From positions 6,158 to 70,157 of the forward strand of contig JBEGSF010000005.1 of NCBI GenBank assembly GCA_041180005.1: a DNA stretch of 64,000 nt. The letters run 5' to 3'. Each line of letters starts with the position of its first letter. The first letter of the stretch is position 1. Both the position numbers and the translations under genes were made by a program. Origin of the DNA: Verrucomicrobiota bacterium. Its GTDB lineage: Bacteria > Verrucomicrobiota > Verrucomicrobiia > Opitutales > UBA953. Shown here piece by piece: positions 14,162-50,059 of the stretch. Below the pieces are notes generated by a model. That model saw nothing but the letters and a program-made list of their open reading frames with translations, ran no database searches and had not been told where the DNA came from.

Positions 14162-14168
14162 GGCGAGC

Positions 14169-15539
14169 TTACTTCACGGCCTTCTTCTTGCCCTTCTTGC
14201 CGGCGCCGGGCTCAGGCCCGTCGTTGTCCTGGCCGCCGCTGCCCCAGAGAGGCTTCACGTTGGTCTTGTTCCATTCGTCCCAGCGGGCCTGCAGTTCCTT
14301 CACCTTCTCCGGCTGTTCGGCGGCGAGGTCCTTGTCCTCATGGATGTCGGCGGCGAGGTCGTAGAGCCTGACCGACGAGACGGGCGCCTTCTTGCCCTTG
14401 CCGGCGTTGGTGTCCGCATTGGTGTCATAACGCACTAGTTTCCAATCACCCTGACGGATCGCCATCTGCTCGCCGAAACGCCAGAAGAGGGCGTCGTGCG
14501 GGGCGGACTTGTTTTCTCCGGAGAGGAAGGGGAGGAGGTCGACGCCTTCCAGTTTCCATTCTGCCTTGGCGGGGACGCCGGCCGCGGCGAGGGCGGTGGC
14601 GTGCAGGTCCATCTGCACGGCCATGGGCGCGAAGGCGGCGGGCTTGAGCTTGGCCGGCCAGGACACGACGAAGGGCACGCGGATGCCGCCCTCGAGGGTC
14701 GTGCGCTTGGAGCCGCGGAGCGGGGAGTTGACCGAGCCGTTGACGGTCACGCCGTTCATCGTCGGTCCGCCGTTGTCGCTGATGAACATCACCAAGGTAT
14801 TGTCGTATTGTCCGCTGGCTTTGAGCGACTGCATGACCTTGCCGATGTTGTCGTCCATCGCCGACATCATCGCGGCGTAGGTGCGGCGGGTCTTGTCCTT
14901 GATCGACGAGAATTTCTCCAGCCGCTCCTTCGTCGCGTCCATCGGCGTGTGCACGGCGTTGAAGGCGAGGTAGAGCATCCAAGGCTTGCCCTTGTTCCGC
15001 TCGACGAACGCGACGGCTTCGCGGCCGAAGGCATCGGTGGCGTAGTCCATCTCCTTCACCGGTTCCGTCCCGCGGAGGAAGCCGCCGGCGTCGAAATAGC
15101 TGTGGGCGCCGGCCAGGAAGCCGTAGAAGTCCGTGAAGCCGCGGCGTTGGGGCACCTGTTCGGGCGCGGAGCCGAGGTGCCACTTGCCGACCATGCCGGT
15201 CGCGTAGCCGGCTTCGCGCAGACGTTCGGGCAAGGTGCCTTCGTTCAGCGGCAGCCCATTACGGCCCGAGGGGTTGAATTCATGGCCGAAGCGGGTCTGC
15301 TGGCGGCCGGTAAGCAGAGCGGCGCGGGTCGGCGAGCAATACGGACCGGTGACGTATCCGTTGGTGAAACGGACCCCCGAGGCGGCCAGCGTGTCGAGGT
15401 GCGGCGTAGGGATGTCCTTGCAGCCATGGAAGCCGACGTCGGCGTAGCCCATGTCGTCGCCGACGATGAGGAGGATGTTGGGCCGGTCGGCGCCGAAAAG
15501 GCCGGCGGCGAGCAGCACGAGCAGGGCGGGGAGCTTCAT
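14169..15539 (-). CDS. formylglycine-dependent sulfatase, secreted
   Basis: 'PNILLIVGDDMGYADVG' and 'CSPTRAALLTGR'. The ATG at 15537-15539 (MKLPALLVLLAAG signal peptide) is preferred over 15635. Confidence 0.9.
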   Translation of the reverse strand: MKLPALLVLLAAGLFGADRPNILLIVGDDMGYADVGFHGCKDIPTPHLDTLAASGVRFTNGYVTGPYCSPTRAALLTGRQQTRFGHEFNPSGRNGLPLNEGTLPERLREAGYATGMVGKWHLGSAPEQVPQRRGFTDFYGFLAGAHSYFDAGGFLRGTEPVKEMDYATDAFGREAVAFVERNKGKPWMLYLAFNAVHTPMDATKERLEKFSSIKDKTRRTYAAMMSAMDDNIGKVMQSLKASGQYDNTLVMFISDNGGPTMNGVTVNGSVNSPLRGSKRTTLEGGIRVPFVVSWPAKLKPAAFAPMAVQMDLHATALAAAGVPAKAEWKLEGVDLLPFLSGENKSAPHDALFWRFGEQMAIRQGDWKLVRYDTNADTNAGKGKKAPVSSVRLYDLAADIHEDKDLAAEQPEKVKELQARWDEWNKTNVKPLWGSGGQDNDGPEPGAGKKGKKKAVK

Positions 15540-15633
15540 CGATAGAATAACACCATCAGGGTGCCGGAGTTTCGTGCCCGTCATCCGTCGGGCTAAATGT
15601 TTACAACCTAAGGCGACCCAGTAAGGTCGGGAC

Positions 15634-16785
15634 ATGGATCACCCCCTCCGTACGCTGTTTTGCACGTTGGTCCTGTGGGCGTCGGGGGACGTCGCCGCCT
15701 TCGACCAGGCGCCCTTCGACGTCCCTCAGAATCGGGTGCTCCTGACGCTCGCGCCCGCTCCGGAGAATCCCCGTAACTCCGAGGGGGCTTTCGCGACGCT
15801 TGGCTCCGGGCGGATCATCTTCTGCTATTCCTCCTATTACGGAGGAAAGGGGGAGGATCATGGGCCGGCGCGCATCGCGCAGATCTATTCCGACGACCGT
15901 GGACTCACGTGGAGCGCCCCGCGCACGATCGTGGAGAACGAAGGCCGCTGTAACGTGATGAGCGTCTCGCTGCTGCGCGCCGCCAGCGGCAAGCTGCATA
16001 TGGTCTACCTGGTGAAGAACAGTTGGGTGGATTGCCGTCCGTATCTGCGGACCTCGGAGGACGACGGCGCGACCTGGTCCGCCCCGAGGCTCATCCTGCA
16101 GGCGCCGGGTTATTTCGTGGCCAACAACGATCGGCTCATCCAGACCTCCAAGGGCCGGCTGATCCTGCCGGTGGCATTCCATCGTTCCCGTGGACAGGAT
16201 CCGTTGAGCAGCCGTTCCTTCGACGCGCGGGCGATCGCCCTGTGGATCACCTCGGATGACGACGGGAAGACATGGCAAGAAGCCGCCAACTGGTGGGCGA
16301 TGCCGGTGCGATCAGGCAGCGGCCTCCAGGAGCCCGGAGTGGTCGAGCGGGCTGACGGCCTGCTTTTTTCCTGGGCGCGGACCGACGCGGGCTTTCAGTA
16401 CGGCTTCGCCTCCAAGGATGGCGGCAAGAGCTGGGAAGCCCCCGCTCCCACGACGCTCGCTTCGCCCGTTTCCCCCGCCAGCATCAAGCGTATCCCGGGT
16501 TCGGCCGAACTCCTGGCGATCTACAACGACCACTCGGGCCGCTTCGCGTTTACCAAGGGCCGGCGTAGTCCGCTCGTGGCCGCGATCTCGACTGACGGCG
16601 GGGCCACCTGGGGCCGGCACAAGCTCCTGGAGGGCGACCCGGATGGCTGGTATTGCTACACGGCTATCCACTTCGTCGGCGACGACGTGCTGCTTGCCTA
16701 CTGCGCCGGTGACAGCGCCAAGAAGACCTACCTCAACGTGATGCGCCTGCGGAAGACCTCGCTGGCCTGGCTGCGAAGCGAGTGA
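15634..16785 (+). CDS. BNR/Asp-box repeat exo-alpha-sialidase-like glycosidase
   Basis: Five Asp-boxes: SDDRGLTW, SEDDGATW, SDDDGKTW, SKDGGKSW, STDGGATW. Signal peptide present. Confidence 0.8.
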   Translation: MDHPLRTLFCTLVLWASGDVAAFDQAPFDVPQNRVLLTLAPAPENPRNSEGAFATLGSGRIIFCYSSYYGGKGEDHGPARIAQIYSDDRGLTWSAPRTIVENEGRCNVMSVSLLRAASGKLHMVYLVKNSWVDCRPYLRTSEDDGATWSAPRLILQAPGYFVANNDRLIQTSKGRLILPVAFHRSRGQDPLSSRSFDARAIALWITSDDDGKTWQEAANWWAMPVRSGSGLQEPGVVERADGLLFSWARTDAGFQYGFASKDGGKSWEAPAPTTLASPVSPASIKRIPGSAELLAIYNDHSGRFAFTKGRRSPLVAAISTDGGATWGRHKLLEGDPDGWYCYTAIHFVGDDVLLAYCAGDSAKKTYLNVMRLRKTSLAWLRSE

Positions 16786-18314: not shown

Positions 18315-19907
18315 ATGAGATTCGCCCCGATCTTGCTCTGCTGGACCGTCCTGTGCCTCGCCGCCGAGCCGGCCCGGAAACTCAAGGTCTTCATCCTCGT
18401 CGGGCAGTCCAACATGCAGGGGCAGGGCGTCGCGGACCTTGCGGGACGCAATTACAACGAGGGCAAGGGTACGTTGGTGGACGTGATGTCCAAGCCCGAG
18501 GCGGGCACGCGTTACGCTCACTTGAAGCAGCCGGATGGATCTTGGACAGTCCGGAATGATGTCTGGGTCCGTTATCAGCGAGAAGGGCAGCCCTTGCAGG
18601 CCGGTCCGCTCTCTCTCGGTTTCGGTGCCTACGTGAGCAAGCATCACTTTGGCCCCGAATATCAGTTCGGGCACGTCGTCGGCCAGGCCTACCGCGATCA
18701 GGTGCTGCTCATCAAGACCGCCTGGGGAGGCAAGAGTCTCTATCGCGATTTCCGTCCGCCGAGCGCTGGCGGTGAGGTCGGTCTTTATTACACGAAGATG
18801 GTCGCCGAGGTGCGTGAGGCGCTGGCCAACCTGAAGAAGGTTTTCCCGACATACGACGGCGCGGAGGTCGAGCTCGCCGGCTTCGTCTGGTATCAGGGTT
18901 GGAATGACGGCGTGAATCCGAAGACCGCCGTGCCGGAGTATGAGCAGAACCTCGCCCATCTGATCCGCGATGTCCGCAAGGAATTCGGCGCGCCGAAGCT
19001 GCCGGTCATCGTCGGTGAGCTCACCGGCCCATGGGTCGATGCGCCCAAGGAATGGACCGCTCTGCGTAAAGCTCAGGCGAACGTCGCGGAATACCCTGAG
19101 TTCAAGGACAACGTCGTGTTCGTCCCGACCCGTTCCTTCGTGCGTAAGCCCGAGGACTCGCCGAATCCCGGCCATGGCCATCATGAGTTCGGCAACGCCG
19201 AGACCTACTTCCTCGTCGGCGACGCCCTCGGCAAGGCCGCCGTGCAGATGGCCGGTCGCGATCGTCAGGTGCGCCAGGTCCGCGGCTGGACGCTACGGAT
19301 CGACGAACGCCTGATCGCCAAAGATGCTGCGGCCGTCGAGAAGGCGGTCGTCATCTTGGATGCGCAACTGGCGAAGGTGGAGCGGCTTATCCCGGCCAAG
19401 GCGGTCGAACGGCTCCGCTCGGTGCCCTTGAATTTCTCGCTTCCTTATCCCGACCGCCGACCCACCGCCGAATATCACGGCGGCCTGGCTTGGGTGAAGC
19501 AGGTCGGGCGGGAGATCGCCTTGGCCAAGGCAATCGAGTTCACGAATGTCGATCGCTTCGAGCCGGAGATCCGGCGCATGCCCGTGCTCGTCCTCCATGA
19601 GCTCGCCCATGCCTATCACGACCAGGTCATCCCCGGAGGCTATCAGAACAAGGATATCCTCGGGGCCTTCCAGCAGGCCAAGGCGGCCGGGACTTACGAT
19701 GCCGTCAAACGTTGGACCGGTGAGAAGTATGCGGAGAAGCCCAGCAAGGCCTACGCGATGACCAATCAGATGGAATATTTCGCCGAGGTCACCGAGGCCT
19801 ATTTCGACCGCAATGACATGGAGCCGTTCAATCGCGCCGAGCTGCAGGCCAAGGATCCCGGCGTCGTCCCGGTTCTCGCCAAACTCTGGGGCGTCGAGCC
19901 GAAATGA
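18315..19907 (+). CDS. fusion protein: sialate O-acetylesterase-like (SASA/DUF303) domain + C-terminal HExxH metallopeptidase-like domain
   Basis: N-terminal 'KVFILVGQSNMQGQG' and 'FVWYQGWND' (SASA type). C-terminal 'VLVLHELAHAYH' (HExxH at 19596-19610). Signal peptide present. Confidence 0.75.
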   Translation: MRFAPILLCWTVLCLAAEPARKLKVFILVGQSNMQGQGVADLAGRNYNEGKGTLVDVMSKPEAGTRYAHLKQPDGSWTVRNDVWVRYQREGQPLQAGPLSLGFGAYVSKHHFGPEYQFGHVVGQAYRDQVLLIKTAWGGKSLYRDFRPPSAGGEVGLYYTKMVAEVREALANLKKVFPTYDGAEVELAGFVWYQGWNDGVNPKTAVPEYEQNLAHLIRDVRKEFGAPKLPVIVGELTGPWVDAPKEWTALRKAQANVAEYPEFKDNVVFVPTRSFVRKPEDSPNPGHGHHEFGNAETYFLVGDALGKAAVQMAGRDRQVRQVRGWTLRIDERLIAKDAAAVEKAVVILDAQLAKVERLIPAKAVERLRSVPLNFSLPYPDRRPTAEYHGGLAWVKQVGREIALAKAIEFTNVDRFEPEIRRMPVLVLHELAHAYHDQVIPGGYQNKDILGAFQQAKAAGTYDAVKRWTGEKYAEKPSKAYAMTNQMEYFAEVTEAYFDRNDMEPFNRAELQAKDPGVVPVLAKLWGVEPK

Positions 19908-19959
19908 GCCCCGGCGGGATGCTCTTGCCCGGGGCCGCGCTCGGTGAGAGTAATATCCC

Positions 19960-20721
19960 ATGAGCTTCGCCACGCTTGCCCGCTTTCTCGCCATCTTCTG
20001 CCTGACGTTGGCGGCTTTCGGCGAGGACCCGCGCCGGGTCCTTTTCATCGGTAATAGCTATACCGGTGTCAATAAACTGCCCGAGGTCTTCTTGGAGGTC
20101 GTGAAGAGCTCCGGCGGGCCGGCGCCGGTGGTGAAGTCTTCGACGCCTGGTGGGCGCACCTTGAAGCAGCATCTTGGCATCGCCGGGAGCCTTGCGCTCA
20201 TCGACGAGGGCGGTTGGGATGTCGTGGTGCTTCAGGGCCAGAGCCAGGAGCCGGCCATCGCGGAGAAAGATGAGTCCGTACGGAAGGATTTTCTCGAGAG
20301 CGCCGCGGCGCTCTGCTCACGTGTTCGCGCGAAGAGTCCGCAGGCGCGGATTTTCTTCTACGAAACGTGGGCCCGGCATGCTGATTATTGGAAGGCGGCC
20401 AAGAAGGGGCCTGATGTCGGCGCCGACCCGAAGGAGATGCAGGCACGCCTGCGTAAGTGGTATGGCATCGCGGCCAAGGAAAATAGCGCGACCGTCGTGC
20501 CTTGCGGCGACGCATGGGAACTCAACTACGGCGCCCCGCAGCCTCTGCGTCTGCATACCAAGGATCATTCCCACCCGGAATTCGCCGGCACTTACCTCAA
20601 CGCCCTGATCTTCTTCGGGAAGATCTATGACCAGAAGACGCCGGCCCCGAAGTGGATGGGTAAGTTGGACGAGACCCAGGCCAAGCTCATGCAGGGCTTC
20701 GCCGCTCAGGTGCTGAAATAG
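19960..20721 (+). CDS. SGNH-like hydrolase (DUF4886-like), secreted
   Basis: Signal peptide. 'VLFIGNSYTGVN' (block I variant) and 'KDHSHPEFAGTYL' (block V-like). Confidence 0.65.
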   Translation: MSFATLARFLAIFCLTLAAFGEDPRRVLFIGNSYTGVNKLPEVFLEVVKSSGGPAPVVKSSTPGGRTLKQHLGIAGSLALIDEGGWDVVVLQGQSQEPAIAEKDESVRKDFLESAAALCSRVRAKSPQARIFFYETWARHADYWKAAKKGPDVGADPKEMQARLRKWYGIAAKENSATVVPCGDAWELNYGAPQPLRLHTKDHSHPEFAGTYLNALIFFGKIYDQKTPAPKWMGKLDETQAKLMQGFAAQVLK

Positions 20722-20725
20722 CCGA

Positions 20726-21838
20726 TCAAGGCGTCAGGCCCGCGGCGCGCAATGCCGTGGCGTGGACGTTGATGTCGTGGTCGGCCGACCAAGCGAACGG
20801 GGCGCCGTTGACGAGCACGCGGTGCAGGTCGCGGAATTCTTCGTCGTAGCGTCCTTTGGGGACATCCAGCGCGAAGGTGTTTTCACCCTTCTTGAAGCGG
20901 GGTTCGGCGAACATGATCATTTTATCGCCGACTTGTCGGCAGACCTTCGACGTGTCGCGAGGTTCGTCGAGCCGCAGGACGCCTTTGCCGGATTCGAGCG
21001 GGCGGATCTCCATGTCGCCCTTGGTGCCGCGGACGGAGATACAGCGATTAGGTCCGCCGAACGGGTCGGCATGGTTGCAGCGGATCGTCACGGTCGCCTT
21101 GGGGTAAGTGAGCACCGCGAGCTGGTTGTCGACGAAGGCATCCTGCGGGGCGCGGGTGGCGTTGCCGAAGGCTTGGACCGAGAGGGGCGGGCCCATCAGC
21201 GTCACGACCGTGTCCACGAGATGGCACGCGAGCTCATACATCCCGCCGCCGGGAATCTGGGCGAAACGCTTGCGTCCGGCTTCGTCGAGCAGCTTGCCCA
21301 TCGAGGCGTCGATTTCCATGACGTCCCCGAGCCAGCCTTCCTTGACCGCGCGGAACAGCAGCTGGATGCCGGGGTTGTAGCGTAGCATGTAGCCCATCTG
21401 GACGGTCAGGCCTTTTTCGGCGGCGTAGCGACGGAGCTCCACGAAGTCGGCGTGCTTTTCGGCGCCCGGTTTGTCCAGGTGGATGTGCTTGCCGGCTTTG
21501 AGCGCGGCGAAGGCCGCCCGCGCGGAGTCTTCGAGGGTCGTCTCGATGACGACCACGCGGATGGAAGGGTCGGCGAGGATCTCCGCTTCCGTCAGGTATT
21601 TCAGGCCGGCGAAGGATTTCGCCTTCTGCGCGCTCGCCTGGCGGGAGGCGATGGGCTCGGCGAAGCCGACGACGTCGTAAAGGTCGGGCAAGGAGCGAAG
21701 CGCGTCCATCTTGCCTGCGGCGTGGGCGTGCGAGGTGCCGATCTGGGCGACGCGGAGGCGTTCCTTGTTCTCGGCGGCGAGCAGGCCGGCGAACGGGGTC
21801 AAGGCGAGGCCAGTGAGGAGGGTGCGGCGGTGGATCAT
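20726..21838 (-). CDS. Gfo/Idh/MocA-family oxidoreductase with Tat-like signal
   Basis: 'MIHRRTLLTGLALTPFAGLLAA' and Rossmann 'RVAQIGTSHAHA'. The stop of the upstream gene overlaps by 4 nt. Confidence 0.8.
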   Translation of the reverse strand: MIHRRTLLTGLALTPFAGLLAAENKERLRVAQIGTSHAHAAGKMDALRSLPDLYDVVGFAEPIASRQASAQKAKSFAGLKYLTEAEILADPSIRVVVIETTLEDSARAAFAALKAGKHIHLDKPGAEKHADFVELRRYAAEKGLTVQMGYMLRYNPGIQLLFRAVKEGWLGDVMEIDASMGKLLDEAGRKRFAQIPGGGMYELACHLVDTVVTLMGPPLSVQAFGNATRAPQDAFVDNQLAVLTYPKATVTIRCNHADPFGGPNRCISVRGTKGDMEIRPLESGKGVLRLDEPRDTSKVCRQVGDKMIMFAEPRFKKGENTFALDVPKGRYDEEFRDLHRVLVNGAPFAWSADHDINVHATALRAAGLTP

Positions 21839-39686: not shown

Positions 39687-40541
39687 TCAGGCCGGACCGA
39701 AGCCGAGCAGGTCGATGCCGAGCTGCTTGGCCCGCGCGATCACGGCGGGCTTGTCGATGAGGATGACCGCGTCGGCTTCGAGGGCGGCCTTGGCGACGCC
39801 GCCTTCGGCCATGCTCTCGAGCGTCTTGAGTCCGAAGCAGGGGACGTCGAAGCGCCAGTCCTGGGCATGCTTCGACGTCTTCGTCAGCAGCATCTCCTTG
39901 CCGCCCGTCTGGGCGCAGCGGCGGAGCATGTTGTCCGTGCCTTCGAAAGCTTCGACCGCGATGACGGTGCCTTTGGCCGTGACGACCGACTGGCCGACGT
40001 CTAGCCGGGCCATCTCGCGGGCCATGCGGGTGCCGAACTCGAGCTGGTCGTCGCCGACGCCGCAGCTCCAGCCGGTCATGCAGCCGGGCGAGGCGAGGTG
40101 GTCGTCCAGGAAGACGCGCGCGTCCAGCATGCGGACGCCGACCTTCTCGATCTCGGCGGAGATGGCGCCGAAGATCGTCTCGGCGTTGCGCTCCTTGAGC
40201 GAGGCCATGAGCGCGATGAGTTTCAGGTCGGGCACCATGCCCGTGAAGAGCTTGCGCGGGGTGACCTGGCCGGCCATCACCGTGCCGGCTGCGTCGAGTT
40301 CCTTGAGCGCGTCGAGCATCTGGCCGAGCTTGCCGACCGGGATGGCGCGATGGTCTGCGGGGTCGAACGTGGCGATGAGGGCCGGGTCGGTCTCTTCTTC
40401 GAAGGAGACCAGCTTGATCTTGGCGCCGCGGGCGCGGGCGCATTCGACGAGCAGGGCGGGGTAGCGGCCTTTGCCGGCGATCACCACGACGGTCTGCGTC
40501 GGAGCGAAGTCCGGGGGGAGGAATCGGGAGGCGACCGCCAT
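39687..40541 (-). CDS. lpxI: UDP-2,3-diacylglucosamine diphosphatase LpxI (DUF1009)
   Basis: 'VVVIAGKGRYPAL', 'DVGQSVVTAKGTVIAVEAFEGTDNMLRR' and 'RFDVPCFGLKT'. ATG at 40539-40541. The longer ORF to 41207 is antisense to nadD. Confidence 0.85.
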   Translation of the reverse strand: MAVASRFLPPDFAPTQTVVVIAGKGRYPALLVECARARGAKIKLVSFEEETDPALIATFDPADHRAIPVGKLGQMLDALKELDAAGTVMAGQVTPRKLFTGMVPDLKLIALMASLKERNAETIFGAISAEIEKVGVRMLDARVFLDDHLASPGCMTGWSCGVGDDQLEFGTRMAREMARLDVGQSVVTAKGTVIAVEAFEGTDNMLRRCAQTGGKEMLLTKTSKHAQDWRFDVPCFGLKTLESMAEGGVAKAALEADAVILIDKPAVIARAKQLGIDLLGFGPA

Positions 40542-40622
40542 GGGGGCAGTGTTTCGGCGGAAGGCCTCGGGCTCAAGCCTGCTTTGGGTTGCCACCGGCT
40601 CGGCGTCGGAACGTAATGAGTC

Positions 40623-41213
40623 ATGCCTGCTGCCATCGGCATCCTGGGTGGGACCTTCGATCCTCCGCATGCGGGACATGTGGCGGCGGCCGTGGCCGCG
40701 CAGAAGCAGCTCGGCCTCGACCAGGTGCGCGTCATCCCGGCGGGTCAGGCTCCGTTGCGCACGGGCGCCCCGGTGGCTTCGGCCGCCGATCGCGTCGCGA
40801 TGTGCCGTCTCGCGTTCGCGGAGCACCCGTGGGCCGTCGTCGATGAGCGTGAGACCATGCGGGCCGGCACGAGCTGGTCCGTTGATACCGCCCGCGAGCT
40901 CGCCCGGGAATTCCCGGACGCCCTGCGGGTCTGGATCCTGGGCGCGGACCAGCTTGCCCGTCTCGACCGTTGGAAGGACGTGGTCGAACTCTGCGGCCTC
41001 GTCGAGTTCGCGGTCCTCGCGCGCGACGGGATCTCGACCCAGCCGCCGGCATCCTTGGCCGCGGTCATCCGTCTGACCGTGCTGCAGGCGCCGCCCGTGC
41101 GCATCTCGTCGACCGCGCTCCGCGAGGCCATGCGCCGCGGTGATTCGCCCCGAAACGGCTTGCCCCTCGGGGTCGCCCGCCACATCGATGAGCGCTCCCT
41201 TTACCAAGCCTGA
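40623..41213 (+). CDS. nadD: nicotinate-nucleotide adenylyltransferase
   Basis: 'IGILGGTFDPPHAGH' and 'ISSTALR' motifs. Confidence 0.9.
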   Translation: MPAAIGILGGTFDPPHAGHVAAAVAAQKQLGLDQVRVIPAGQAPLRTGAPVASAADRVAMCRLAFAEHPWAVVDERETMRAGTSWSVDTARELAREFPDALRVWILGADQLARLDRWKDVVELCGLVEFAVLARDGISTQPPASLAAVIRLTVLQAPPVRISSTALREAMRRGDSPRNGLPLGVARHIDERSLYQA

Positions 41214-41787: not shown

Positions 41788-41864
41788 TGGTGGTAGTGGG
41801 CAGGATCGAACTGCCGACCTAGGGCTTATGAGTCCCTCGCTCTAACCAACTGAGCTACACTACC
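41788..41864 (-). tRNA. tRNA with CAT anticodon (elongator Met or lysidine-modified Ile2), CCA encoded
   Basis: Minus strand: GGTAGTG-TA-GCTC-AGTTGGTT-AGAGC-G-AGGGA-CTCATAA-GCCCT-AGGTC-GGCAG-TTCGATC-CTGCC-CACTACC-A-CCA. The cloverleaf is intact and the G1:C72 pair argues against an initiator. Confidence 0.88.
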
Positions 41865-41922: not shown

Positions 41923-42540
41923 TCAGGGGCGCGGCTGGACGATGATCCAGAAGCACCAGAGCCACAGAAGCAGGCCCAGGCAGGCCAGGACGAGGGCGAG
42001 CCCGGACTGGGTCTGGCGGATTTCAGCCAGGCCTTCCTGGTCGAGGGTGCGGCCGATCCGGCGCACGAGGGCGACCGGAAGGAAGCAGCCCAGAGCCGTC
42101 GTGAAGGTGAGCAGGATGAAGAGCGAGATCGGCGGGGTGTCCGGGGCGACGATGTGCCAGGCGTAGACCGCGAGCGCGAACAGCGGAGGCAGCAGGAAGG
42201 TCGAGCCGCACCAGAGATAACCGGCGCGCACGGTGCGTTCGAGGTTCTCGCCGGCGGCCGAGCGGGCGGTGTCGGGCATGAGCCCCGAATGTTCGTCGGC
42301 GACGAAGCCGGGCGGAGGCGGCGGCGCGTCGCCCGCCGAGACTTCGGCGGTGGGCGCGATCACGCGCGTCAGGCCGGCGCCGCGGAGGTAGTCGCGCAAG
42401 GTCATCCAGCGTCCGTCGACTTCGATGTTGTGCAGCAGGCTGATCTCGCCGGCGCGGAGGAGCTCCTGCACGCGGGCGAGCGGGAAGGGGCCGGTCACGG
42501 CGCCTTTCCAGCGGAGTCGGAATGCGTTGGTCGGAGCCAT
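41923..42540 (-). CDS. GYF_2-like N-terminal domain + three TM helices (gene 4 of the GTPase operon)
   Basis: 'FRLRWKGAVTGPFPLARVQELLRAGEISLLHNIEVDGRWMTL' resembles a GYF_2/DUF4339 domain. Three hydrophobic helices lie in the C-terminal half. Confidence 0.7.
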   Translation of the reverse strand: MAPTNAFRLRWKGAVTGPFPLARVQELLRAGEISLLHNIEVDGRWMTLRDYLRGAGLTRVIAPTAEVSAGDAPPPPPGFVADEHSGLMPDTARSAAGENLERTVRAGYLWCGSTFLLPPLFALAVYAWHIVAPDTPPISLFILLTFTTALGCFLPVALVRRIGRTLDQEGLAEIRQTQSGLALVLACLGLLLWLWCFWIIVQPRP

Positions 42541-42542
42541 GA

Positions 42543-45494
42543 TCAGAGGTCGCGCCCTTGGAGCAGGGTCTCCCAGCCGCCGTCGGGCGGATTCAATCCC
42601 TTGGGGATGCCCGCGGCTTCGGCCGCTTCGGCGACGGTGCCCGGGTAGCGCAGGAGGGGCGAGAGCGGCGCGCCGTCGGCGACGCGCTTGGGCAGGCCGT
42701 CCTCGCCGACGCGGAAGAGCACCGCGACCTTGCCGTCGTTATCGAGGCCGTAGAGCGCGCTGCCCTTGGCGGCCTCGCGCAGGCGGGGCGTGCCGTCGCG
42801 TCCGACCATGCCGGCGAAGACCACGCGGCGGGTGCGCAGCTGCGCGAAGGTGGCGCGCCAGAAACGGGCTTCCTCGGCGTAGCCCGCGCCGCCTTGCGGT
42901 ACGAGGAACGCACGGAGTTCGCCCTTCACGTCGGCCCACTTGTCGCGGAAGAGGTAATCGTAGGGCTCGAGGCCGTTCTGCGTGATGCGACGGAGCTGTT
43001 CGGCGTCGCGCTGCGCGCTCGGGGAGAAGATCAGGCCCCAGGCGTCGGGACGGCCGCCGGCGAGCTTGTACAGTTCCTGGAGCTGGAACGCGCGCAGCTC
43101 AGGGTAGGGCGAGTCGCTGCGCCGCACGCGCTCCATCGTGCGCAGCGGTGGCTCGAGGAGGCGGCCGGAGCGCGCGTCCTGGAAACGGGTGACCTGGCGG
43201 ATGAACTCGAGCTCCGGGATGGGGGCGAGCGCGGTGAGCTCTTCGCCGTTGCGGAAGCCGTTGTTGAATTCGCGGCGTCGCCAGGCACCTTCGGCGACGC
43301 TGCCGTCGCGGTTGAGCTCCTTGGCCTTCTGCGTGAATTCGACGCCGTCGTTGAAGGAGTTCTTGGTCTCCGCGACCTCGCCGACGACGTAGACCGAGCG
43401 TCCCGGAGTGACGCCGCGGACCGAGTAGAGGCTGAGCGTCGCGCGGCGCAGGCTGTCGGCGAGCGAGGTGTCCGAGAGGCGACGCAGCAGTCGCTGTTCG
43501 ACCTCGGTCAGCACGGCAGGGTGGAAGACGCCCTGAGGGTCGGCGGTCGCGGCCGCGTCCCACATCGCGGCCACGCGCGGGGCGAGGACGGGGCGGGGCA
43601 GGGCCTGGAGCGACGGGGCGCGCGTGAAGACGAAGGAAGCGCGGGCGCCGAGGTCGGTCTTCTCGCCGGCGGTGTTGGCCGAGGCGTCGGCGAGCGCGGC
43701 GAGGTAGCTGGTGAGGTCGGCCGCGGCCTCCAGCGTGCGGAGGGCGGTGGCGATCTTGCGGTCGCCGGCCAGGCGGATCTCTCCGCGGTCCGCGGCGGCC
43801 GCGGCGGAGTCGAGGTCGCGGTCACCCGCTTCGCCGAGGATCTTCAGCAGCAGGCGGAGGCGTTCGAGGGTCTCCATCGCGCGCACCGGGTCGGCGATCG
43901 CGACGCTGTCGCCGACGGCCTTGTTGAGGGCAGCCGTGCGGACGGCGAGTTCCTGGCGGAGCTTGCCGAGGTGGTTCTGGCTGGCCGCGGCCAGGCCTTC
44001 CGGATCGGGCAGCACGGCCTTGAGCCGCTCGCGCAGCCCCGGTCCGGCTTCGCCGAGGGACTTCAGATAAGCCGCGCTCCGACGGGCGACTTCCGCGACG
44101 TTGCCGTCGGTCACGCCGGACTTGCCGGTCTCGGCGAGCTGGCGGGCTTCGAGGCGGAGCTTCTGTTCCACCGCGATCTGCTGGGCGAGCGTCTCACGCA
44201 ACGGGCGGGCGGCGGCTTTGCGGCGTTCCAGTTCGGCCGCGCCGGAACCCCCGCGTTCGAATTCATCGAGCGCGCGGAGGGCGGCGTCGTGGTCGTAAAG
44301 TTCGACGAGGCGCGTGGCTTCGGAGAAGCGGCCGAGCGTCTCTTCCTCCTGCTGGCGCTGGAGGTTGACGGCGACGACGACGCCCACGATCACGAGGAGG
44401 CCGACGACCCAGGAGGAGGTCAGCAGCAGGTAGCGGCGGTTGAGGCGGGTGCGCGTGGCTTGGCGCAGGGCGCGGGCTTCGCGCAGGAGGCCTTCGGGCA
44501 GCCTTTCGGCGTGAGGCGTCGCGCGTTCGAGCCAGGCGCTCAGGCGCACGATGAGGATCGCGGGCGAGGAACCGCGGGCGGCTTCCTGGCCGAGCACCTG
44601 CCACTCCTCGAGGAGGCTCTCGACGGCGGAGCGGAGGGCGGCTTCGGCTTCGGCGGTCGCGGCGAGTTCGCCGGCCCAGGCTTCGAGCTCGGCCATCTGG
44701 GCGAGCAGTTCGGGCGAAAGGTTCAGCTGGTGGTCGCGTTCCAGCGCGCGCGTGCGGCCGAGGGCCGAGGCGCAGGCTTCCCAGTGGCCTCCGTCACGGG
44801 CCAGCGCGGCTTCGGCGACGAGGCTGATGGCCTGTTCGGCGGCGTTGGCGCGGAGCCAGGCCGCGCGACGGGCACGGGCGTCGTCCCAGCGCGGTTCGCC
44901 GGAAAGGTCGTTCGCGCCGAAGCGCTCCATGCGCTGCATGAGCTCGACGGCCTCGGCCGGGCGGCCTTCGGCGAAGAGCGCGCCGACGCGACCCAGCGAC
45001 TCGCGGAGGAACTTCGCGGACAGGCGGGCGAGTTCGGACTGCGCGTTCGGGTCGTCGGGATTGATGCGGACGATCGAACGCAGCACCGCGAGCGCGCGGT
45101 CTTCGTCGCGGCGGCGGATCGCGTCGCGGTAATCGCGGTAGAGCGGGTGGCTCTCGCCGATGACGCGTCCGTAGAGGCTTTCGACGGCGAGCACGTGCTG
45201 ACCGTCGAGCGGGAAGCCGGCCGGAAGGCCGCGTTCGCGGCAGAGCGCGTGCCAGCGGTCGGATTCCGCGAAGCTCAGCAGGGCGCAGAGGCCGAGGAGA
45301 TCGGGGTCGGCTTCGGCGGCTTGGAAGGCGGCGTGTTCGTTGCCTCCGCGCACGAGCGTGGCGCACTGCTCGAGGCGTTCGCGGGCGCGTACGCACAGCG
45401 CGGCGTATTCGCCGGCCAGCGAGCGGGCTTCGAGATCAGGCGTCCCGAGCTCGAGCTGGCCGCGGATGCGGGCGATGAGGCGTTCGGCCTGCAT
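42543..45494 (-). CDS. 983-aa single-pass membrane protein, helical N-terminal half, unknown function (gene 3 of the GTPase operon)
   Basis: ATG start. One TM 'YLLLTSSWVVGLLVIVGVVVAV' (residues about 355-377). 3-nt gap to the upstream gene and 2-nt gap to the downstream gene. Confidence 0.75.
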   Translation of the reverse strand: MQAERLIARIRGQLELGTPDLEARSLAGEYAALCVRARERLEQCATLVRGGNEHAAFQAAEADPDLLGLCALLSFAESDRWHALCRERGLPAGFPLDGQHVLAVESLYGRVIGESHPLYRDYRDAIRRRDEDRALAVLRSIVRINPDDPNAQSELARLSAKFLRESLGRVGALFAEGRPAEAVELMQRMERFGANDLSGEPRWDDARARRAAWLRANAAEQAISLVAEAALARDGGHWEACASALGRTRALERDHQLNLSPELLAQMAELEAWAGELAATAEAEAALRSAVESLLEEWQVLGQEAARGSSPAILIVRLSAWLERATPHAERLPEGLLREARALRQATRTRLNRRYLLLTSSWVVGLLVIVGVVVAVNLQRQQEEETLGRFSEATRLVELYDHDAALRALDEFERGGSGAAELERRKAAARPLRETLAQQIAVEQKLRLEARQLAETGKSGVTDGNVAEVARRSAAYLKSLGEAGPGLRERLKAVLPDPEGLAAASQNHLGKLRQELAVRTAALNKAVGDSVAIADPVRAMETLERLRLLLKILGEAGDRDLDSAAAAADRGEIRLAGDRKIATALRTLEAAADLTSYLAALADASANTAGEKTDLGARASFVFTRAPSLQALPRPVLAPRVAAMWDAAATADPQGVFHPAVLTEVEQRLLRRLSDTSLADSLRRATLSLYSVRGVTPGRSVYVVGEVAETKNSFNDGVEFTQKAKELNRDGSVAEGAWRRREFNNGFRNGEELTALAPIPELEFIRQVTRFQDARSGRLLEPPLRTMERVRRSDSPYPELRAFQLQELYKLAGGRPDAWGLIFSPSAQRDAEQLRRITQNGLEPYDYLFRDKWADVKGELRAFLVPQGGAGYAEEARFWRATFAQLRTRRVVFAGMVGRDGTPRLREAAKGSALYGLDNDGKVAVLFRVGEDGLPKRVADGAPLSPLLRYPGTVAEAAEAAGIPKGLNPPDGGWETLLQGRDL

Positions 45495-45497
45495 GGA

Positions 45498-47627
45498 TCA
45501 ACGGAATTCAAGCAGACGAGGTCCGGCGGCGCCGCCGGCATCGACGGCCTGCACGACCCAAGGGGCGCCGGCTTCGATGAACCTGCCTTCGCGGAAGGCT
45601 TTGCGGCGGGCGGCGACTTCCTCGTAAGGAGGCGAACCCGGGCCCTGCTTGGACTCGAGACGGAGCAGGTCGGTCTCGAGCAGGGAGCGGGTGGCGCGGA
45701 CGGACGGAAGGTCGCGGTCTGGGAAACTGTGCTCGGCCGGGTAGAGGCCGACCTGGCCGTGGGCCCAGACGAAGGCGTTGACGGCGGACTCGGCCCAAGG
45801 AGCCGGACGGATCACGCCGGTGTCCACGTCGTAGCGGAGCGCGCCGGCGCCGAGGTCGAGCGGGCGCAGCTGGGCGGCGTCGCCGATCAGGGCGAGCACG
45901 CGACGGTCACCCTTGGGCATGATGATCTCGACGAGGACGTTGGCGCTCGGCGCGCCTTCGGCGGCGGTGAAGTTGAGGGATACGACGTTACGGCGGGCGC
46001 CGAGGCCGATGCCGATCGCAGGCAGCTTGCCCGGCTCGGGGTTGGATTCGAACCAGGTCGTCTGCTGGGTCACCCGGATCTCGCCGTTGAGATAAGGCGT
46101 GCGGTCGTCGCGCTGGTGCGGCGTGACCAGCGGCAGCACGCGGAGGCGGATCTGCGCGCTGGTGCGGGACGAGGCGCCCGCTTCCTCGGCCCATTTCGTG
46201 AGACGATCCACCGCGGAGCGAGAGAGGGAGAACTGCGCTTCGATAGGCGACTTCGGTCCGATGTCGGAGAGGTGCCACTGGCCGGGCGCGACGAGGACGG
46301 GGCGGACGTCGAGCGTGGGGAGGCGCAGCGTGCGTTCCTTGATTTCGACGAGCTGCTTCCAGGCGGCGTCTTCGGGGACGTCGAGGAGCTTGCCGACGCG
46401 CATGACCTCGAGGGTCTCGGCGTGCGCGGCCTGGCTGGCCTTCGGGTCGTCGAGGATGTCGCGTCGTTCGATCTTGGCGAGGAGCTGGCGGACGGCACCG
46501 GCGGAGTAACCGTTGAGGATGCGCGGAAGGATCTGCTCCTTGTAGTTGCCGAGGCGGGCAGGGGAGCGCTCGTTGGTCTCAAGCCAGAGGCGCGCGGCGG
46601 GCAGCATGTCGCCCGTCTCGAGCAGGCTCTGGATTTCGGTGACGGCGCGGTTGACCCGGAGGATTTCTTCCTGCTGCGCGAGGTCGGAAGCGGAAGGCGC
46701 TGGAGCGACGTTCGCGACCGGCTTCGGTTCGGGCGCGGGGTCCGGGGAGCGATTCGAGAAGAGGAAGGCGAGGCCGGCGGCGACGACGAGCAGGACGCCG
46801 CCCACGATCCAAGGCGTGGCGGAGCCGCCTTGCGGAGCTGAGGGCGCGGCGCCAGGGCGGCGTGTGACCGCGATCGGCGTGGCCTTCGGAGCAGTCAGTC
46901 CGGCGGCTGCCTGACGGGCGAGGTCGCCGGTCGGCGCAGGCAGCGTGCGCGCTTCGACGAAGTCGATCGTCGCGGGGCGTTCGGCGTGGGCGGCCCAGAC
47001 GAAGCCGGCTTCACCCGTGATCCGGGCGTCGGTCGTGAACGTCGCGTGCCAGGCGGCCTTGCCGATGAGGGCGGAAGATTCGGCGAAGAGCTTCAGCAGC
47101 GTCGCGTTGGCCGGAGGATTGCGTAGGCCCAGCGTGGTCGCGCCGGTCGCGTCGACGAGCCACGCGGCCTTGGCGCCGGTGCCGGTGGTCTCGCGCCACG
47201 TGACGGCGGGGGACAGCGGCGTGGCGGCTTCGAGGGTCAGCGGGCGATTCTCACCTTCGAGCCAGGCGGGGGCTCCGCTCCATTCGGCGAGCCAGCCTTT
47301 CCAGCGGGCGGCCAGGGCGGCGGGCGGAGCGAGGAGGGCGGCCTCTTCGGCGGTGAAGATCAGGTGATGGGCGAGACGGTTGTCGCGTTGCGTGTAATCG
47401 AGGCCGCGGGCGACGAAGCGGGAGAGCACGAACCAATGACGGTCGCCGGCTTCGAGGGTGCGGAAGGTGAACGTCTCTCCTTCGGCCTGCTCGTGCGGCG
47501 TGCCGACGGATTCGAGCAGCTGGGCCAGACGATCCGGCACGGCGCGGTGGCGGGCGACGGTGCAATAGCCCGAACGTCCCGGGGTAAGGCCTTGCGGAGC
47601 GGAGGTGAAGACGAGTTGGAGGGGCAT
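45498..47627 (-). CDS. 709-aa membrane protein with GAP1-N-like N-terminal domain (gene 2 of the GTPase operon)
   Basis: 'MPLQLVFTSAPQGLTPGRSGYCTVA...LDYTQRDNRLAHHLIF'. TM 'PWIVGGVLLVVAAGLAFLF' (about 272-290). The start overlaps the GTPase stop (TGATG). Confidence 0.75.
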   Translation of the reverse strand: MPLQLVFTSAPQGLTPGRSGYCTVARHRAVPDRLAQLLESVGTPHEQAEGETFTFRTLEAGDRHWFVLSRFVARGLDYTQRDNRLAHHLIFTAEEAALLAPPAALAARWKGWLAEWSGAPAWLEGENRPLTLEAATPLSPAVTWRETTGTGAKAAWLVDATGATTLGLRNPPANATLLKLFAESSALIGKAAWHATFTTDARITGEAGFVWAAHAERPATIDFVEARTLPAPTGDLARQAAAGLTAPKATPIAVTRRPGAAPSAPQGGSATPWIVGGVLLVVAAGLAFLFSNRSPDPAPEPKPVANVAPAPSASDLAQQEEILRVNRAVTEIQSLLETGDMLPAARLWLETNERSPARLGNYKEQILPRILNGYSAGAVRQLLAKIERRDILDDPKASQAAHAETLEVMRVGKLLDVPEDAAWKQLVEIKERTLRLPTLDVRPVLVAPGQWHLSDIGPKSPIEAQFSLSRSAVDRLTKWAEEAGASSRTSAQIRLRVLPLVTPHQRDDRTPYLNGEIRVTQQTTWFESNPEPGKLPAIGIGLGARRNVVSLNFTAAEGAPSANVLVEIIMPKGDRRVLALIGDAAQLRPLDLGAGALRYDVDTGVIRPAPWAESAVNAFVWAHGQVGLYPAEHSFPDRDLPSVRATRSLLETDLLRLESKQGPGSPPYEEVAARRKAFREGRFIEAGAPWVVQAVDAGGAAGPRLLEFR

Positions 47628-49354
47628 CAGGAATGGGGGGTCGCGGGGAACATCGCCGGCGAGGACAGGTGCAGCAGCCAGTAGAGGGGCTCCTCCACGT
47701 GGGCCGGAGCGAGGCGCTGCGGATCGGGAGCGATGCGGCCCTTGTTCGGACCGGCCCCGATCATCACCGGCGTGTGGCCGAAGGAGGTCGCGGCGAAGAA
47801 GCAGATCTGGTCGGCGAGGGATTCCGCCGAGGCGACGAGGCCGGGGCAGAGATGGAGCAGGACCTCGCGCACGCGGTCGGAATTGCGGCGGACGGCGGCG
47901 AGGTCCAGCGCGCCGGCGCGGATCACCGGTTCGAGCGGCGAGCTGAGGAGCTTCTCCCAGGTGTCGGACTTGCCGACCACGAAGGCGAGCGGCGTCGCGA
48001 TGCGCTGGTCGTGCGCGAGGCCGAGCACGCGCTTCATGCGCGTCTCCATCTCGGCCAGGATGCTGTCCTGCTGGTCGACGCGGCCCTTGAGCGAGAGCTG
48101 CGGATCGTCGACGCCGACGAGCTTGGCCTTGAAGCGCGCGTTGGCGGTCGGGTCGAAAAGGAAGATCAGGCCGCTGGAGGTCGCGACGTGCATCGCGCCG
48201 GGCGAGTCATGGATGTCGATGCCCGGCTCGAAGTGCTCGCCGGCGTTGTCATACAGGATGACCGACGTATCGAGCGCCGGCTGGCCTGGGCGGCTCAGCG
48301 AATAGATGAACGGACGGGGCAGGGAGACCATGCGGCCGAGGCGCGGGAGCTTCTCGTAGGTCGCGCCTTCGAGGGCCGTCTTGCCGAGCAACGCGTCTTC
48401 CGGCGTCGCCGCGGAGAAGAGCGTGTTGCGCATCTGGTTGAGCAGCATGTTGCCGCTCGGGTCGCCGTCCTTGAACGCCAGCGAGAAGTCCTCGGGCAGG
48501 CGGTCCTGAAGCACGCGCGTGAGCACGGCGAGGTAGTAGGATTTGCCGGCGCTCGGAGCGCCGATGAGCGAGATGATGCGGTGCGGACGCTCGAGGTAGC
48601 CGGGCGGCAGCTGACGGCGGCAGTGCGGGCAGGCGATGTCGGTGCAGGCCAGGCCCATCGGATCGAGGGCGAGCCCTTGGTCGTTGAAGCGCGTGGGCTG
48701 GAAGCGGAGGCGCGCGTCGGAGCCTAGGATCGGATCGCCGCGCAGGTTCTCATGCACCGCGATGCTCAACGCGTCGCCGGCGTCGAAGCGCGTCCAGCAG
48801 ACCGGGCACACGTGCGCGCCTCGGTTCTGTTCGGCGGCGAGGAGCGCCGTGTTCTGCGGGCGGACCTCCGTTTCTTCCGGAGGGGAGAGGAGCGGAGCGA
48901 TCTGCGCGAGGTTGAAGCCGACCTCGAGGCCGACGGGCGTGCAGGCGAGCGCTTCGGTGGGCAGGCCGGAGCGGGCGGCCGCGGCGAGGAGTTCCGTCGC
49001 CGGATGCTCGCCGAGCTGGTCGCCGGTGCGGGCGTCGAAGAGCACCCAGAGGTCGGTCCGGATGAAGGCGAAATCCTGCTGAGCGCGGGGGGCCACGACG
49101 AGCAAGGCGGAGGGTAGCTGGACGGTCGTCGGTTCGGTGACCGCGAGACGCTGGCTCAGCGGGGCGCCGTTCACCAAGGCCACGCCGGCGCCGGAGGGCT
49201 CGAGGCCGACGGTCTCTCCCGCCGGGACGAGGGACAGGGCGGGTTGGGGCGCGTCGCCCGGGAGGGCGGCCGGCAGCTCAGCGGTGAAGCCTTTTTCGCC
49301 GCTGAGGCAATTGACCCAGGAGAGGGTGGGGGTTTTCTTGCGGGTCGTGAACAT
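47627..49354 (-). CDS. Zn-ribbon-containing P-loop GTPase (TRAFAC-type motifs), gene 1 of the operon
   Basis: CPVC (183-186) and CPHC (242-245). Walker A 'GAPSAGKS' (265-272), 'DNAGE' (369-373) and 'GKSD' (461-464). Confidence 0.8.
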   Translation of the reverse strand: MFTTRKKTPTLSWVNCLSGEKGFTAELPAALPGDAPQPALSLVPAGETVGLEPSGAGVALVNGAPLSQRLAVTEPTTVQLPSALLVVAPRAQQDFAFIRTDLWVLFDARTGDQLGEHPATELLAAAARSGLPTEALACTPVGLEVGFNLAQIAPLLSPPEETEVRPQNTALLAAEQNRGAHVCPVCWTRFDAGDALSIAVHENLRGDPILGSDARLRFQPTRFNDQGLALDPMGLACTDIACPHCRRQLPPGYLERPHRIISLIGAPSAGKSYYLAVLTRVLQDRLPEDFSLAFKDGDPSGNMLLNQMRNTLFSAATPEDALLGKTALEGATYEKLPRLGRMVSLPRPFIYSLSRPGQPALDTSVILYDNAGEHFEPGIDIHDSPGAMHVATSSGLIFLFDPTANARFKAKLVGVDDPQLSLKGRVDQQDSILAEMETRMKRVLGLAHDQRIATPLAFVVGKSDTWEKLLSSPLEPVIRAGALDLAAVRRNSDRVREVLLHLCPGLVASAESLADQICFFAATSFGHTPVMIGAGPNKGRIAPDPQRLAPAHVEEPLYWLLHLSSPAMFPATPHS

Positions 49355-49411
49355 TGGCTCCTGAAGTCGGGGTGTTAAAGAGGTTGATTAGCGAGGGGTA
49401 ATTGTAAAGAT

Positions 49412-50059
49412 ATGTCACCACGATTATGGGTCGACTCCGACCTGTTTTCCTCTACCCAACCCGTACCCATGGAGACCGAAGCCGACCAGTCCGCCTTGGA
49501 CCGAGCCCGCCAGGGGGATCTGTCGGCCTACAACGAGCTGGTCCTCAAGTATCAGGGTCGCATCTTCGCCAAGGTCTTTTCGCTGCTCCGTAACCGTCAG
49601 GACGCCGAGGAAATCACCCAGGACACGTTCATCCGGGCCCATCGGGTCCTGGCTTCTTTCCGCGGAACCGCCACTTTCTCGACCTGGATCCACCAGATCG
49701 GCACCAATCTCGCCCGCAATCGCTACTGGTACTGGCGCCGCCGCAAGCGTGACCAGTCCATGTCCCTCGACGCCGACCTCGGCGACGACCCCGGCGCGAC
49801 CCTGCACGACATCCTTTCGGACGGCGCCCAAGGCCCCGGCCATGAGGCCCAGCATAACGAATTCGTCCACAAAGTGGCCGAGTGCATGGAACAATTGAAG
49901 CCGGAACACGCTCGTATCCTGACGATGCGCAACGTCCGCAACATGTCGTATGAAGAGATCGCCGAAGACCTCGGCCTCTCGATCGGCACGGTCAAGAGCC
50001 GCATCAACCGCGCCCGCGAAGCCCTGCGCGAACTCATGGGAGAGGAGTTCCGAGGATGA
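49412..50059 (+). CDS. ECF-type RNA polymerase sigma factor
   Basis: Region 2 'YNELVLKYQGRIFAKVFSLLRNRQDAEEITQDTFIRA' and region 4 'MSYEEIAEDLGLSIGTVKSRINRAR'. An alternative ATG lies at 49469. Confidence 0.88.
   Translation: MSPRLWVDSDLFSSTQPVPMETEADQSALDRARQGDLSAYNELVLKYQGRIFAKVFSLLRNRQDAEEITQDTFIRAHRVLASFRGTATFSTWIHQIGTNLARNRYWYWRRRKRDQSMSLDADLGDDPGATLHDILSDGAQGPGHEAQHNEFVHKVAECMEQLKPEHARILTMRNVRNMSYEEIAEDLGLSIGTVKSRINRAREALRELMGEEFRG

Follow-up and report, generated by a model that had tools for sequence, protein, structure and literature searches.

Organization of the Four-Gene Operon

Four consecutive genes, named here g1 to g4, lie on the minus strand of a 64,000-nucleotide stretch of contig JBEGSF010000005.1 from a Verrucomicrobiota bacterium of the order Opitutales (hereafter, the window). 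They encode a soluble GTPase of 575 amino acids (aa) (g1, 47627-49354), a GAP1-type bitopic membrane protein of 709 aa (g2, 45498-47627), a bitopic membrane protein of 983 aa from a family without a Pfam model (g3, 42543-45494), and a membrane protein of 205 aa (g4, 41923-42540); all four start with an ATG, and all of their features described below are on the minus strand. A preliminary description of this DNA had presented the four genes as one coupled unit, and its coordinates proved exact: g1 and g2 overlap by 1 nucleotide (nt) in a TGATG junction (spacing of -1), while 3 nt separate g2 from g3 and 2 nt separate g3 from g4. Only g1 has a clear AGGAG upstream of its initiation codon, and the set is one operon. 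Judged on its domains, this operon is best filed as a variant of the GAP1-N2-type DO-GTPase systems, a class predicted by comparative genomics (Kaur, Burroughs, Iyer & Aravind, eLife 2020, PMC7159879), and not as a system without precedent.

Hydropathy gives no transmembrane segment in g1, one in g2 (residues 268-293), one in g3 (354-381), and three in g4 (114-203), which bears out the helices proposed for the last three proteins. The G+C content of the four genes (0.70-0.72) and their G+C at third codon positions (0.85-0.91) equal those of the adjacent housekeeping genes, so that the composition is indeed host-like, as had been said. Searches of Pfam and NCBIfam found no nuclease, protease, toxin, or other enzymatic effector domain in g1-g4, in agreement with the absence of such motifs noted before.

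The Zinc-Ribbon GTPase g1

The P-loop GTPase domain of g1 spans residues 258-570 (47645..48583) and contains a G1 motif, GAPSAGKS (265-272), a Walker B motif with its Glu, DNAGE (369-373), and a G4 motif, GKSD (461-464). It is preceded by a four-Cys, zinc-ribbon-like module at residues 183-245 (48620..48808), made of CPVC (183-186) and CPHC (242-245) on either side of a conserved 55-residue insert. We aligned 40 sequences that share 28-44% identity with the window g1. Residues C183, C186, C242, C245, G265, G270, K271, and K462 never vary among them, and D369, G372, E373, and D464 reach a conservation of at least 90%; the earlier identification of g1 as a zinc-ribbon TRAFAC-type GTPase was right. 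The Cys4 site is a putative zinc ribbon, one site and not two ribbons.

The family to which g1 belongs is large: 1358 representatives match it in a protein library clustered at 50% identity. Pfam model PF19993 (DO-GTPase2) is matched by 26 of the 40 distant relatives taken from that library, and a precomputed match to it is present in many of the homologues that are 62-97% identical to g1 (1302 homologues in all). We therefore class g1 as a predicted DO-GTPase2-type protein by family evidence and not by the score of the single sequence. A profile search of the PDB with g1 gave nothing significant.

The N-terminal ~180 aa of g1 had been called unknown, but relatives reveal what may be a degenerate FHA-like module followed by a GYF-like one, two assignments that we regard as tentative. 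The first would cover residues 1-95 (49070..49354): weak or sub-threshold matches to FHA or Yop-YscD_cpl fall at residues ~14-97 in the full-length relatives aligned there, with FHA-type matches in 7-8 of the 40, while the window sequence, which has a deletion in the FHA motif region, has no Pfam match to FHA. The second would cover residues 98-160 (48875..49063) and follows a W...G..GP..eL pattern, degenerate in the window; GYF_2 is matched in 4/40 relatives, and hhalign pairs this region with the N-terminal domain of g4 at a probability of 68.6% over 21 columns. The region before the ribbon is variable among relatives. Single members of the 40 are fused to TIR, protein kinase, or FGE-sulfatase domains, or to GAP1-N2 plus GAP1-M.

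The GAP1-N2 Membrane Protein g2

The resemblance of the N-terminus of g2 to GAP1-N domains, suggested previously, is confirmed and can be narrowed to type N2: residues 4-120 (47268..47618) match PF20013 with E=1.6e-16 and 61 bits, for a cut-off of 24. The same model is matched in 18/18 g2 orthologues, in 19/19 sequences of an alignment of distant homologues, and in all but one (a truncated protein) of 120 listed database homologues. The conserved cytoplasmic region extends further, to about residue 215 (46983), and its residues 120-215 could be a divergent GAP1-M domain. A single transmembrane helix follows (residues 268-293, 46749..46826, hydropathy 2.35). Distant homologues also have one such helix, with ~25 to 570 residues after it.

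The remainder of g2 (residues 294-709, 45501..46748) is predicted to be periplasmic, helical and then beta-rich, and is lineage-specific, its conservation being confined to the Opitutales lineage. Distant g2 proteins carry other ectodomains, among them Ig_3/I-set domains in 7/19 and a ConA-like domain in 1/19. The NCBIfam search of g1-g4 returned one match only, to strep_LAETG (22.7 bits, cut-off 30), which falls on the g2 transmembrane helix and which we rejected as spurious.

The Partner Family of g3

The g3 protein defines a conserved partner family that is new here, without a Pfam model and without a recognizable structural relative of its C-terminal domain. It has 211 homologues; Pfam assigns a domain to none of the 120 that were listed, and a Pfam search with the window g3 and 15 diverse members found no credible family (two isolated matches, E 0.003-0.008). 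An AlphaFold2 model of the whole protein, built on a 21-sequence alignment, has a mean predicted local distance difference test (pLDDT) score of 73.8 and predicts four successive parts: an all-helical N-domain, a transmembrane helix, a stalk made of helices, and a C-domain of mixed alpha/beta structure. The N-domain (residues 1-350, 44445..45494) is conserved, TPR-like, and predicted to be cytoplasmic, with a pLDDT of ~70-90. The transmembrane helix (residues 354-381, 44352..44435, hydropathy 2.57) has five Arg on its N-side, from which we infer an N-in orientation, and a helix is found at residues ~355-385 in 13/13 distant homologues examined. The stalk (residues 385-620, 43635..44342), predicted to be periplasmic, is variable; the alpha/beta C-terminal domain (residues 621-983, 42546..43634) is conserved.

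Modelled separately, residues 610-983 reach a pLDDT of 78.3 and a predicted template modelling score of 0.67. Neither the PDB (best E=0.037, TM-score at most 0.12) nor a viral library (best E=0.004, TM-score 0.09) contains a relative of this model; the whole g3 model yields only generic TPR/solenoid matches with Foldseek (TM-score <0.1), and the PDB profile search with g3 gave nothing significant. The size of the protein in distant loci is always 975-1025 aa.

The Small-Domain Membrane Protein g4

In g4, a conserved small domain predicted to be cytoplasmic (residues 1-55, 42376..42540; pattern LRWKG..GP....I..L...EI.L.H.IE..G.W.T.R) is joined by a Pro-rich linker to a lineage-specific membrane module (residues 107-203, 41932..42222), in which three transmembrane helices follow a conserved GYLWCGSTFLLPP motif. 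The small domain had been described as GYF_2-like, for which we found faint support: neither the window g4 nor any of 17 orthologues (0/17) matches GYF_2 (PF14237) or any other Pfam model at E<=1, PDB profile searches with g4 and with its N-domain gave nothing significant (a GYF match at E=1 only), but 2 of 25 wider relatives do touch GYF_2, at E ~8e-4. The label "GYF-like" is thus reasonable but unproven. The membrane parts of the distant proteins differ, with TM2 in 9/25 and RDD, ABC transporter, or other transmembrane regions in others.

Three particular arrangements were seen among the distant loci: in L153, the g4 N-domain forms one protein with an entire ABC transporter, both ATPase and ABC-2 permease (14322-16160), and an additional copy of the domain lies upstream on the other strand (2382-2528, minus); in L134, two g4-like genes stand in tandem (6762-7501).

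Conservation within the Opitutales Lineage

Scanning one genome per species retrieved, through g1, 80 loci of the window lineage, nearly all labelled as Opitutales/Opitutae or as Verrucomicrobiota metagenome-assembled genomes (MAGs), many of them from lakes and rivers. The order g1-g2-g3-g4 is kept in all 55 complete loci, the other 25 being cut by contig ends, and the flanks are collinear as well, with PtsI, an anti-sigma factor, and an extracytoplasmic function (ECF) sigma factor on one side and RsfS/tRNA-Met on the other; the ECF sigma gene lies less than 400 nt upstream of g1 in 70/70 loci. The synteny of the four families is strongly conserved here and in the distant loci described below. 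At the most distant loci of the lineage, identity to the window is 63-65% for g1, to be set beside 57-62% for PtsI and 72-77% for the ECF sigma factor, and falls to 36-40% for g2, 37-43% for g3, and 29-39% for g4.

The ratios of nonsynonymous to synonymous substitution rates (dN/dS), computed pairwise against seven close relatives, are 0.07-0.12 for g1, 0.13-0.23 for g2, 0.10-0.17 for g3, and 0.16-0.26 for g4, with 0.05-0.08 for PtsI and 0.07-0.15 for RsfS as references. All four genes are under purifying selection. No g1 match was found in 72,556 plasmids or in 50,697 phage records, and PADLOC-DB 2.0 had no match at E<=1 for any of g1-g4. Host-like composition, the plasmid and phage searches, and the housekeeping neighbours led us to reject a mobile-element origin. 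The behaviour of the operon in the window lineage is that of an envelope function inherited vertically and held under constraint, not that of a mobile defence island.

Five of the 80 loci (L008, L016, L034, L045, and L078) are labelled as Polynucleobacter, Klebsiella, Akkermansia muciniphila, or Enterobacteriaceae. Their g1 is 65-94% identical to that of the window and their locus and neighbours are of the Opitutales type; they are most likely mislabelled or mis-binned MAG contigs.

Distant Relatives and Linked Putative Motor Genes

A metagenome scan seeded with distant representatives yielded another 80 loci (L081-L160), 75 of them outside the window lineage, with a g1 36-55% identical to that of the window. 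Genes were called in these loci with hidden Markov models (HMMs) built from the Opitutales alignments only. The g2 N-terminal domain comes directly after g1 in 68/68 loci, the g3 N-domain after g2 in 43/47, and the g4 N-domain after g3 in 21/31; the g3 C-domain is detected in most complete copies (E 1e-14 to 1e-31). The cassette keeps both its gene order and its close spacing down to these levels of g1 identity. By the same HMMs, the periplasmic region of g2, the stalk of g3, and the membrane part of g4 have no detectable conservation in distant loci. The ECF sigma pair, PtsI, and RsfS are adjacent to the cassette in none of the 75 loci, one of which has a 31%-identical sigma gene ~5 kb off. 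Since the flanks are not shared, the four-gene cassette is the conserved unit and the adjacency of the sigma gene reflects a lineage-wide collinearity.

Clustering of the flanking open reading frames (ORFs) of these loci disclosed three families directly downstream of the cassette, on the same strand; the stop codon of one gene often overlaps the start codon of the next. The first family consists of proton channels of the MotA/TolQ/ExbB kind (PF01618; 32.8, 42.8, and 23.0 bits, cut-off 22.9). The second and third are single-pass, coiled-coil proteins, each with a conserved Asp (at least 90%) at the start of the transmembrane helix. An Asp in this position is typical of ExbD, TolR, and MotB, and we tentatively call the two families "ExbD-like". 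All three motor genes are detected by HMM in 25 of the 28 distant loci that have a complete g3 and enough room, the exceptions being L107, L122, and L153; examples are L115 (16884-19811) and L095 (17647-19864).

Past the motor genes, L087 encodes a trypsin_2+TPR protein (12980-14224). L095 encodes a 552-aa protein with a CxxC...CxxC pattern, one transmembrane helix, and a long low-complexity region rich in Gly, Ser, and Pro, without any Pfam match (19873-21528).

Comparison with Known Systems

It had been stated that the operon matches no characterized system. We found no experimental study of the class in question, but the operon does fit a predicted one. In the account of Kaur et al., GAP1-N2-type systems are spread over actinobacteria, firmicutes, planctomycetes, verrucomicrobia, and chloroflexi; their GTPases bear N-terminal zinc ribbons and, as a class feature of DO-GTPases, a Walker-B glutamate; GAP1 is often fused to C-terminal transmembrane segments; and some planctomycete systems are coupled to a gene in which GYF domains are fused to trypsin or to a region rich in transmembrane segments (PMC7159879). 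The window operon shares with this description a TRAFAC GTPase with the Walker-B Glu and an N-terminal zinc ribbon (g1), a GAP1-N2 gene immediately downstream that is fused to a C-terminal transmembrane helix (g2), a partner combining a putative GYF-like domain with transmembrane helices (g4), an occurrence in verrucomicrobia and planctomycetes, and, among the relatives of g1, fusions to FHA, GYF, TIR, kinase, and FGS domains.

It departs from the description in several respects. There is one GTPase in the operon and not two, with one Cys4 site instead of two ribbons; GAP1-M and GAP1-C are not detectable in g2; a family with a TPR-like domain, a transmembrane helix, and a novel C-domain (g3) replaces the FNIII-repeat protein; and g4 has a single weak GYF-like domain, not a GYF pair. 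Unlike the published class, the system of the window lineage is syntenic and vertically inherited and appears not to vary between close relatives; its modules differ between distant lineages but are conserved and syntenic inside the Opitutales lineage. Finally, the linkage of the wider family to MotA/ExbB is unlike the published description: MotA, ExbB, TolQ, TM2, and protons are unmentioned in the text of the paper (PMC7159879), and no GYF, MotA, or Opitutus entries were found in the text of its supplement. The g3 family and the MotA/ExbB linkage are additions to the class as published.

The Agl-Glt gliding machinery of Myxococcus offers a second point of comparison. There, the GTPase MglA drives a switch made of a zinc ribbon (ZnR) and a GYF module of GltJ, and bacteria of the Planctomycetes-Verrucomicrobia-Chlamydiae (PVC) group commonly encode ZnR-GYF modules that precede membrane regions (Attia et al., Sci Adv 2024, PMC11135422). 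In both cases, a GTPase, a zinc ribbon, and a GYF module would meet on the cytoplasmic side of a membrane protein that is coupled to a proton motor of the TolQ/TolR type, a likeness that we take as analogy and not homology. Indeed, g1 is a large DO-GTPase2-type protein with a fused ribbon whereas MglA is small and Ras-like, and the window operon has no MglB, AglZ, or Glt proteins, a weak GYF identity, and no motor genes at the locus. As for the 5:2 proton motors of the MotA/ExbB kind (Ton, Tol, Mot, and Zorya ZorAB), the resemblance lies in the MotA_ExbB protein and the two Asp-bearing single-pass proteins downstream of the distant cassettes; unlike those motors, no TonB, TolA, peptidoglycan-binding MotB domain, or ZorC/D accompanies them.

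Proposed Function and Alternatives

DO-GTPase/GAP1 systems form a large family, known from one comparative-genomics paper. The present locus and its relatives supply a compact conserved core for them, namely a GTPase, a GAP1-N2 protein, a new ~1000-aa scaffold protein, and a membrane adaptor with a GYF-like domain. Our preferred interpretation, in which our confidence is evenly divided, is that the operon encodes a membrane-anchored GTPase switch with a membrane or envelope output and a non-defence role in the window lineage. The proteins g2 and g3, whose C-terminal parts would extend into the periplasm, would dock the GTPase on the inner membrane through their cytoplasmic N-domains; a change in the envelope, sensed by the g2/g3 ectodomains, would alter the nucleotide state or the dimerization of g1; GTP-bound g1 would then engage the membrane module of g4 through its zinc-ribbon and GYF-like modules, with the help of the GYF-like domain of g4; and the switch would thereby alter what the membrane or envelope does; nucleic acids would not be its target. 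Because the cassette precedes a MotA/ExbB channel and two Asp-bearing proteins in most distant relatives, the ancestral output was probably a proton-driven envelope motor, and this tie suggests that GTP switching is coupled to proton-driven envelope work.

A number of points weigh against this interpretation. The docking, sensing, and engagement steps are all inferred, and the topology of g2, g3, and g4 comes from hydropathy and charge bias only. The membership of the class is itself imperfect: the window g1 reaches 23 bits with PF19993, below the cut-off of 27 and over the P-loop stretch only; PF20014 and the other GAP1 models (GAP1-M, GAP1-C) are unmatched in g2, its 18 orthologues, and its 19 distant homologues; FN3 (Pfam) has no match in g1-g4 or their homologues; and the GYF-like label of g4, as well as the FHA-like and GYF-like assignments in g1, are weak. 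In the literature searched, DO-GTPase/GAP1 systems are treated only in the comparative-genomic study of Kaur et al. 2020. Neither Pfam nor the PDB offers a match for the second and third motor proteins, and all three motor families are missing both from the window and from the 10 kb around each of the 80 Opitutales loci, so that their relevance to the window lineage is unproven. One has to keep in mind, too, that these 80 loci were found via g1 and indicate a fixed position where the system exists, not its presence in every genome of the lineage, and that long vertical inheritance is compatible with a defence role.

The alternative that survives best, possible although we doubt it, is a conflict or abortive-infection system, in which the g2/g3 ectodomains would detect a phage or another invader, the GTPase would set the threshold, and the g4 module (in relatives, the MotA-type channel) would collapse membrane function. 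Kaur et al. predicted such a role for the whole class, which they defined as conflict systems because a constant core is coupled to variable modules (PMC7159879). Between lineages, g4 varies in just this manner (TM2, RDD, ABC, or other transmembrane regions), as do the g2 ectodomains (Ig-like, ConA-like, or other), g1 relatives are fused to TIR, kinase, and FGE-sulfatase domains, and a trypsin-TPR gene lies near the cassette in some neighbourhoods. To this can be added that the Zorya defence system is built around a MotA/MotB-like pair; if the defence reading were true, we would be dealing with a Zorya-like system missing from current defence catalogues. Set against all this are the silence of PADLOC models on g1-g4, the absence of g1 from the plasmid and phage collections searched, the fixed position among housekeeping genes in 80 loci, purifying selection on all four genes, with g1 as conserved as PtsI, the host-like composition, and the lack of an enzymatic effector. 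The "conflict module" envisaged in the preliminary description is a poor fit with vertical inheritance among housekeeping genes, and such housekeeping-like inheritance casts doubt on a blanket "conflict system" label.

The GTPase-switch interpretation can also be pushed further, to a version that we consider unlikely: the cassette would be the switch and scaffold of an unrecognized proton-motor envelope machine, and not a conflict system, with a MotA/ExbB-type stator and two ExbD-like partners under the control of the GTPase. This machine would be analogous but unrelated to Agl-Glt, widespread in PVC and other uncultured bacteria, and core in freshwater Opitutales, where the stator would have been lost or relocated. 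If true, it would be a new class of envelope machine in the poorly studied PVC bacteria.

Less probable still is that the cassette supplies specifically the regulatory and adaptor half of a Ton/Tol/Agl-like, proton-driven envelope machine, devoted to uptake, envelope integrity, or surface motility, whose stator is encoded elsewhere in the genomes of the window lineage. The motor trio directly downstream in 25/28 distant loci, with its frequent stop/start codon overlaps, speaks for such a coupling, and the ZnR-GYF-GTPase switch acting on the TolQ/R-type Agl-Glt motor is a working precedent (PMC11135422); yet, motor genes are missing from the window, from the 10 kb around the 80 related loci, and from three distant loci too, partners of the TonB, Glt, or OmpA type are lacking, as is any outer-membrane component, and the label "ExbD-like" is tentative. 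Lastly, the idea that the operon is the regulon or the upstream sensor of the divergent ECF sigma/anti-sigma pair, in the style of cell-surface signalling, is very improbable: the sigma gene stays close upstream in 70/70 lineage loci and their shared intergenic region holds a conserved motif, but this adjacency is uninformative because the whole neighbourhood (PtsI, RsfS) is collinear in the lineage, 0/75 distant loci have the pair beside the cassette (the single 31%-identical sigma gene being ~5 kb away), and the motif, as we read it, misfits ECF -35/-10 spacing.

Flanking Regions and Neighbouring Genes

The tRNA gene and the divergent ECF sigma/anti-sigma pair that had been given as the borders of the operon are present in the window, but the pair is not a conserved partner outside the lineage and was rejected as such. 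On the g4 side, a tRNA-Met(CAT) gene (41788-41864) lies on the same strand as g4, 58 nt past its end, and the neighbours are RsfS, NadD, LpxI, and PanB. The divergent genes upstream of g1 encode the ECF sigma factor and the anti-sigma factor, a small protein that matches zf-HC2 weakly; beyond them lie PtsI and an aminotransferase of the HisC type.

Between g1 and the ECF sigma gene, the intergenic region (49355..49468) contains the AGGAG ribosome-binding site of g1 and a conserved motif of the TGACA...GAATTCAAC type, a putative promoter or operator. In an alignment of 15 loci, read on the minus strand, TGACA (49413-49417) is invariant and is followed, ~10-13 nt further, by GAATTCAAC in most loci and by CAATTACCC in the window; the motif is kept down to 63% g1 identity. 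Scanned for the sigma-70 consensus, the region gave no match, and no sigma-70 or ECF promoter could be read from the motif for either gene; a terminator scan returned terminator-like matches no more often than chance. The ORF predicted for the ECF sigma factor (49412-50059) probably starts at Met20 (METEADQ, ~49469), since tblastn matches elsewhere begin at residues 11-20 and this ATG is conserved in the intergenic alignment. On the other side, a 506-aa ORF with a TTG start (39687-41207, minus) overlaps the opposite-strand gene nadD. Since the match to LpxI is confined to the C-terminal 271 aa of this ORF (39687-40502), the real gene is the shorter one.

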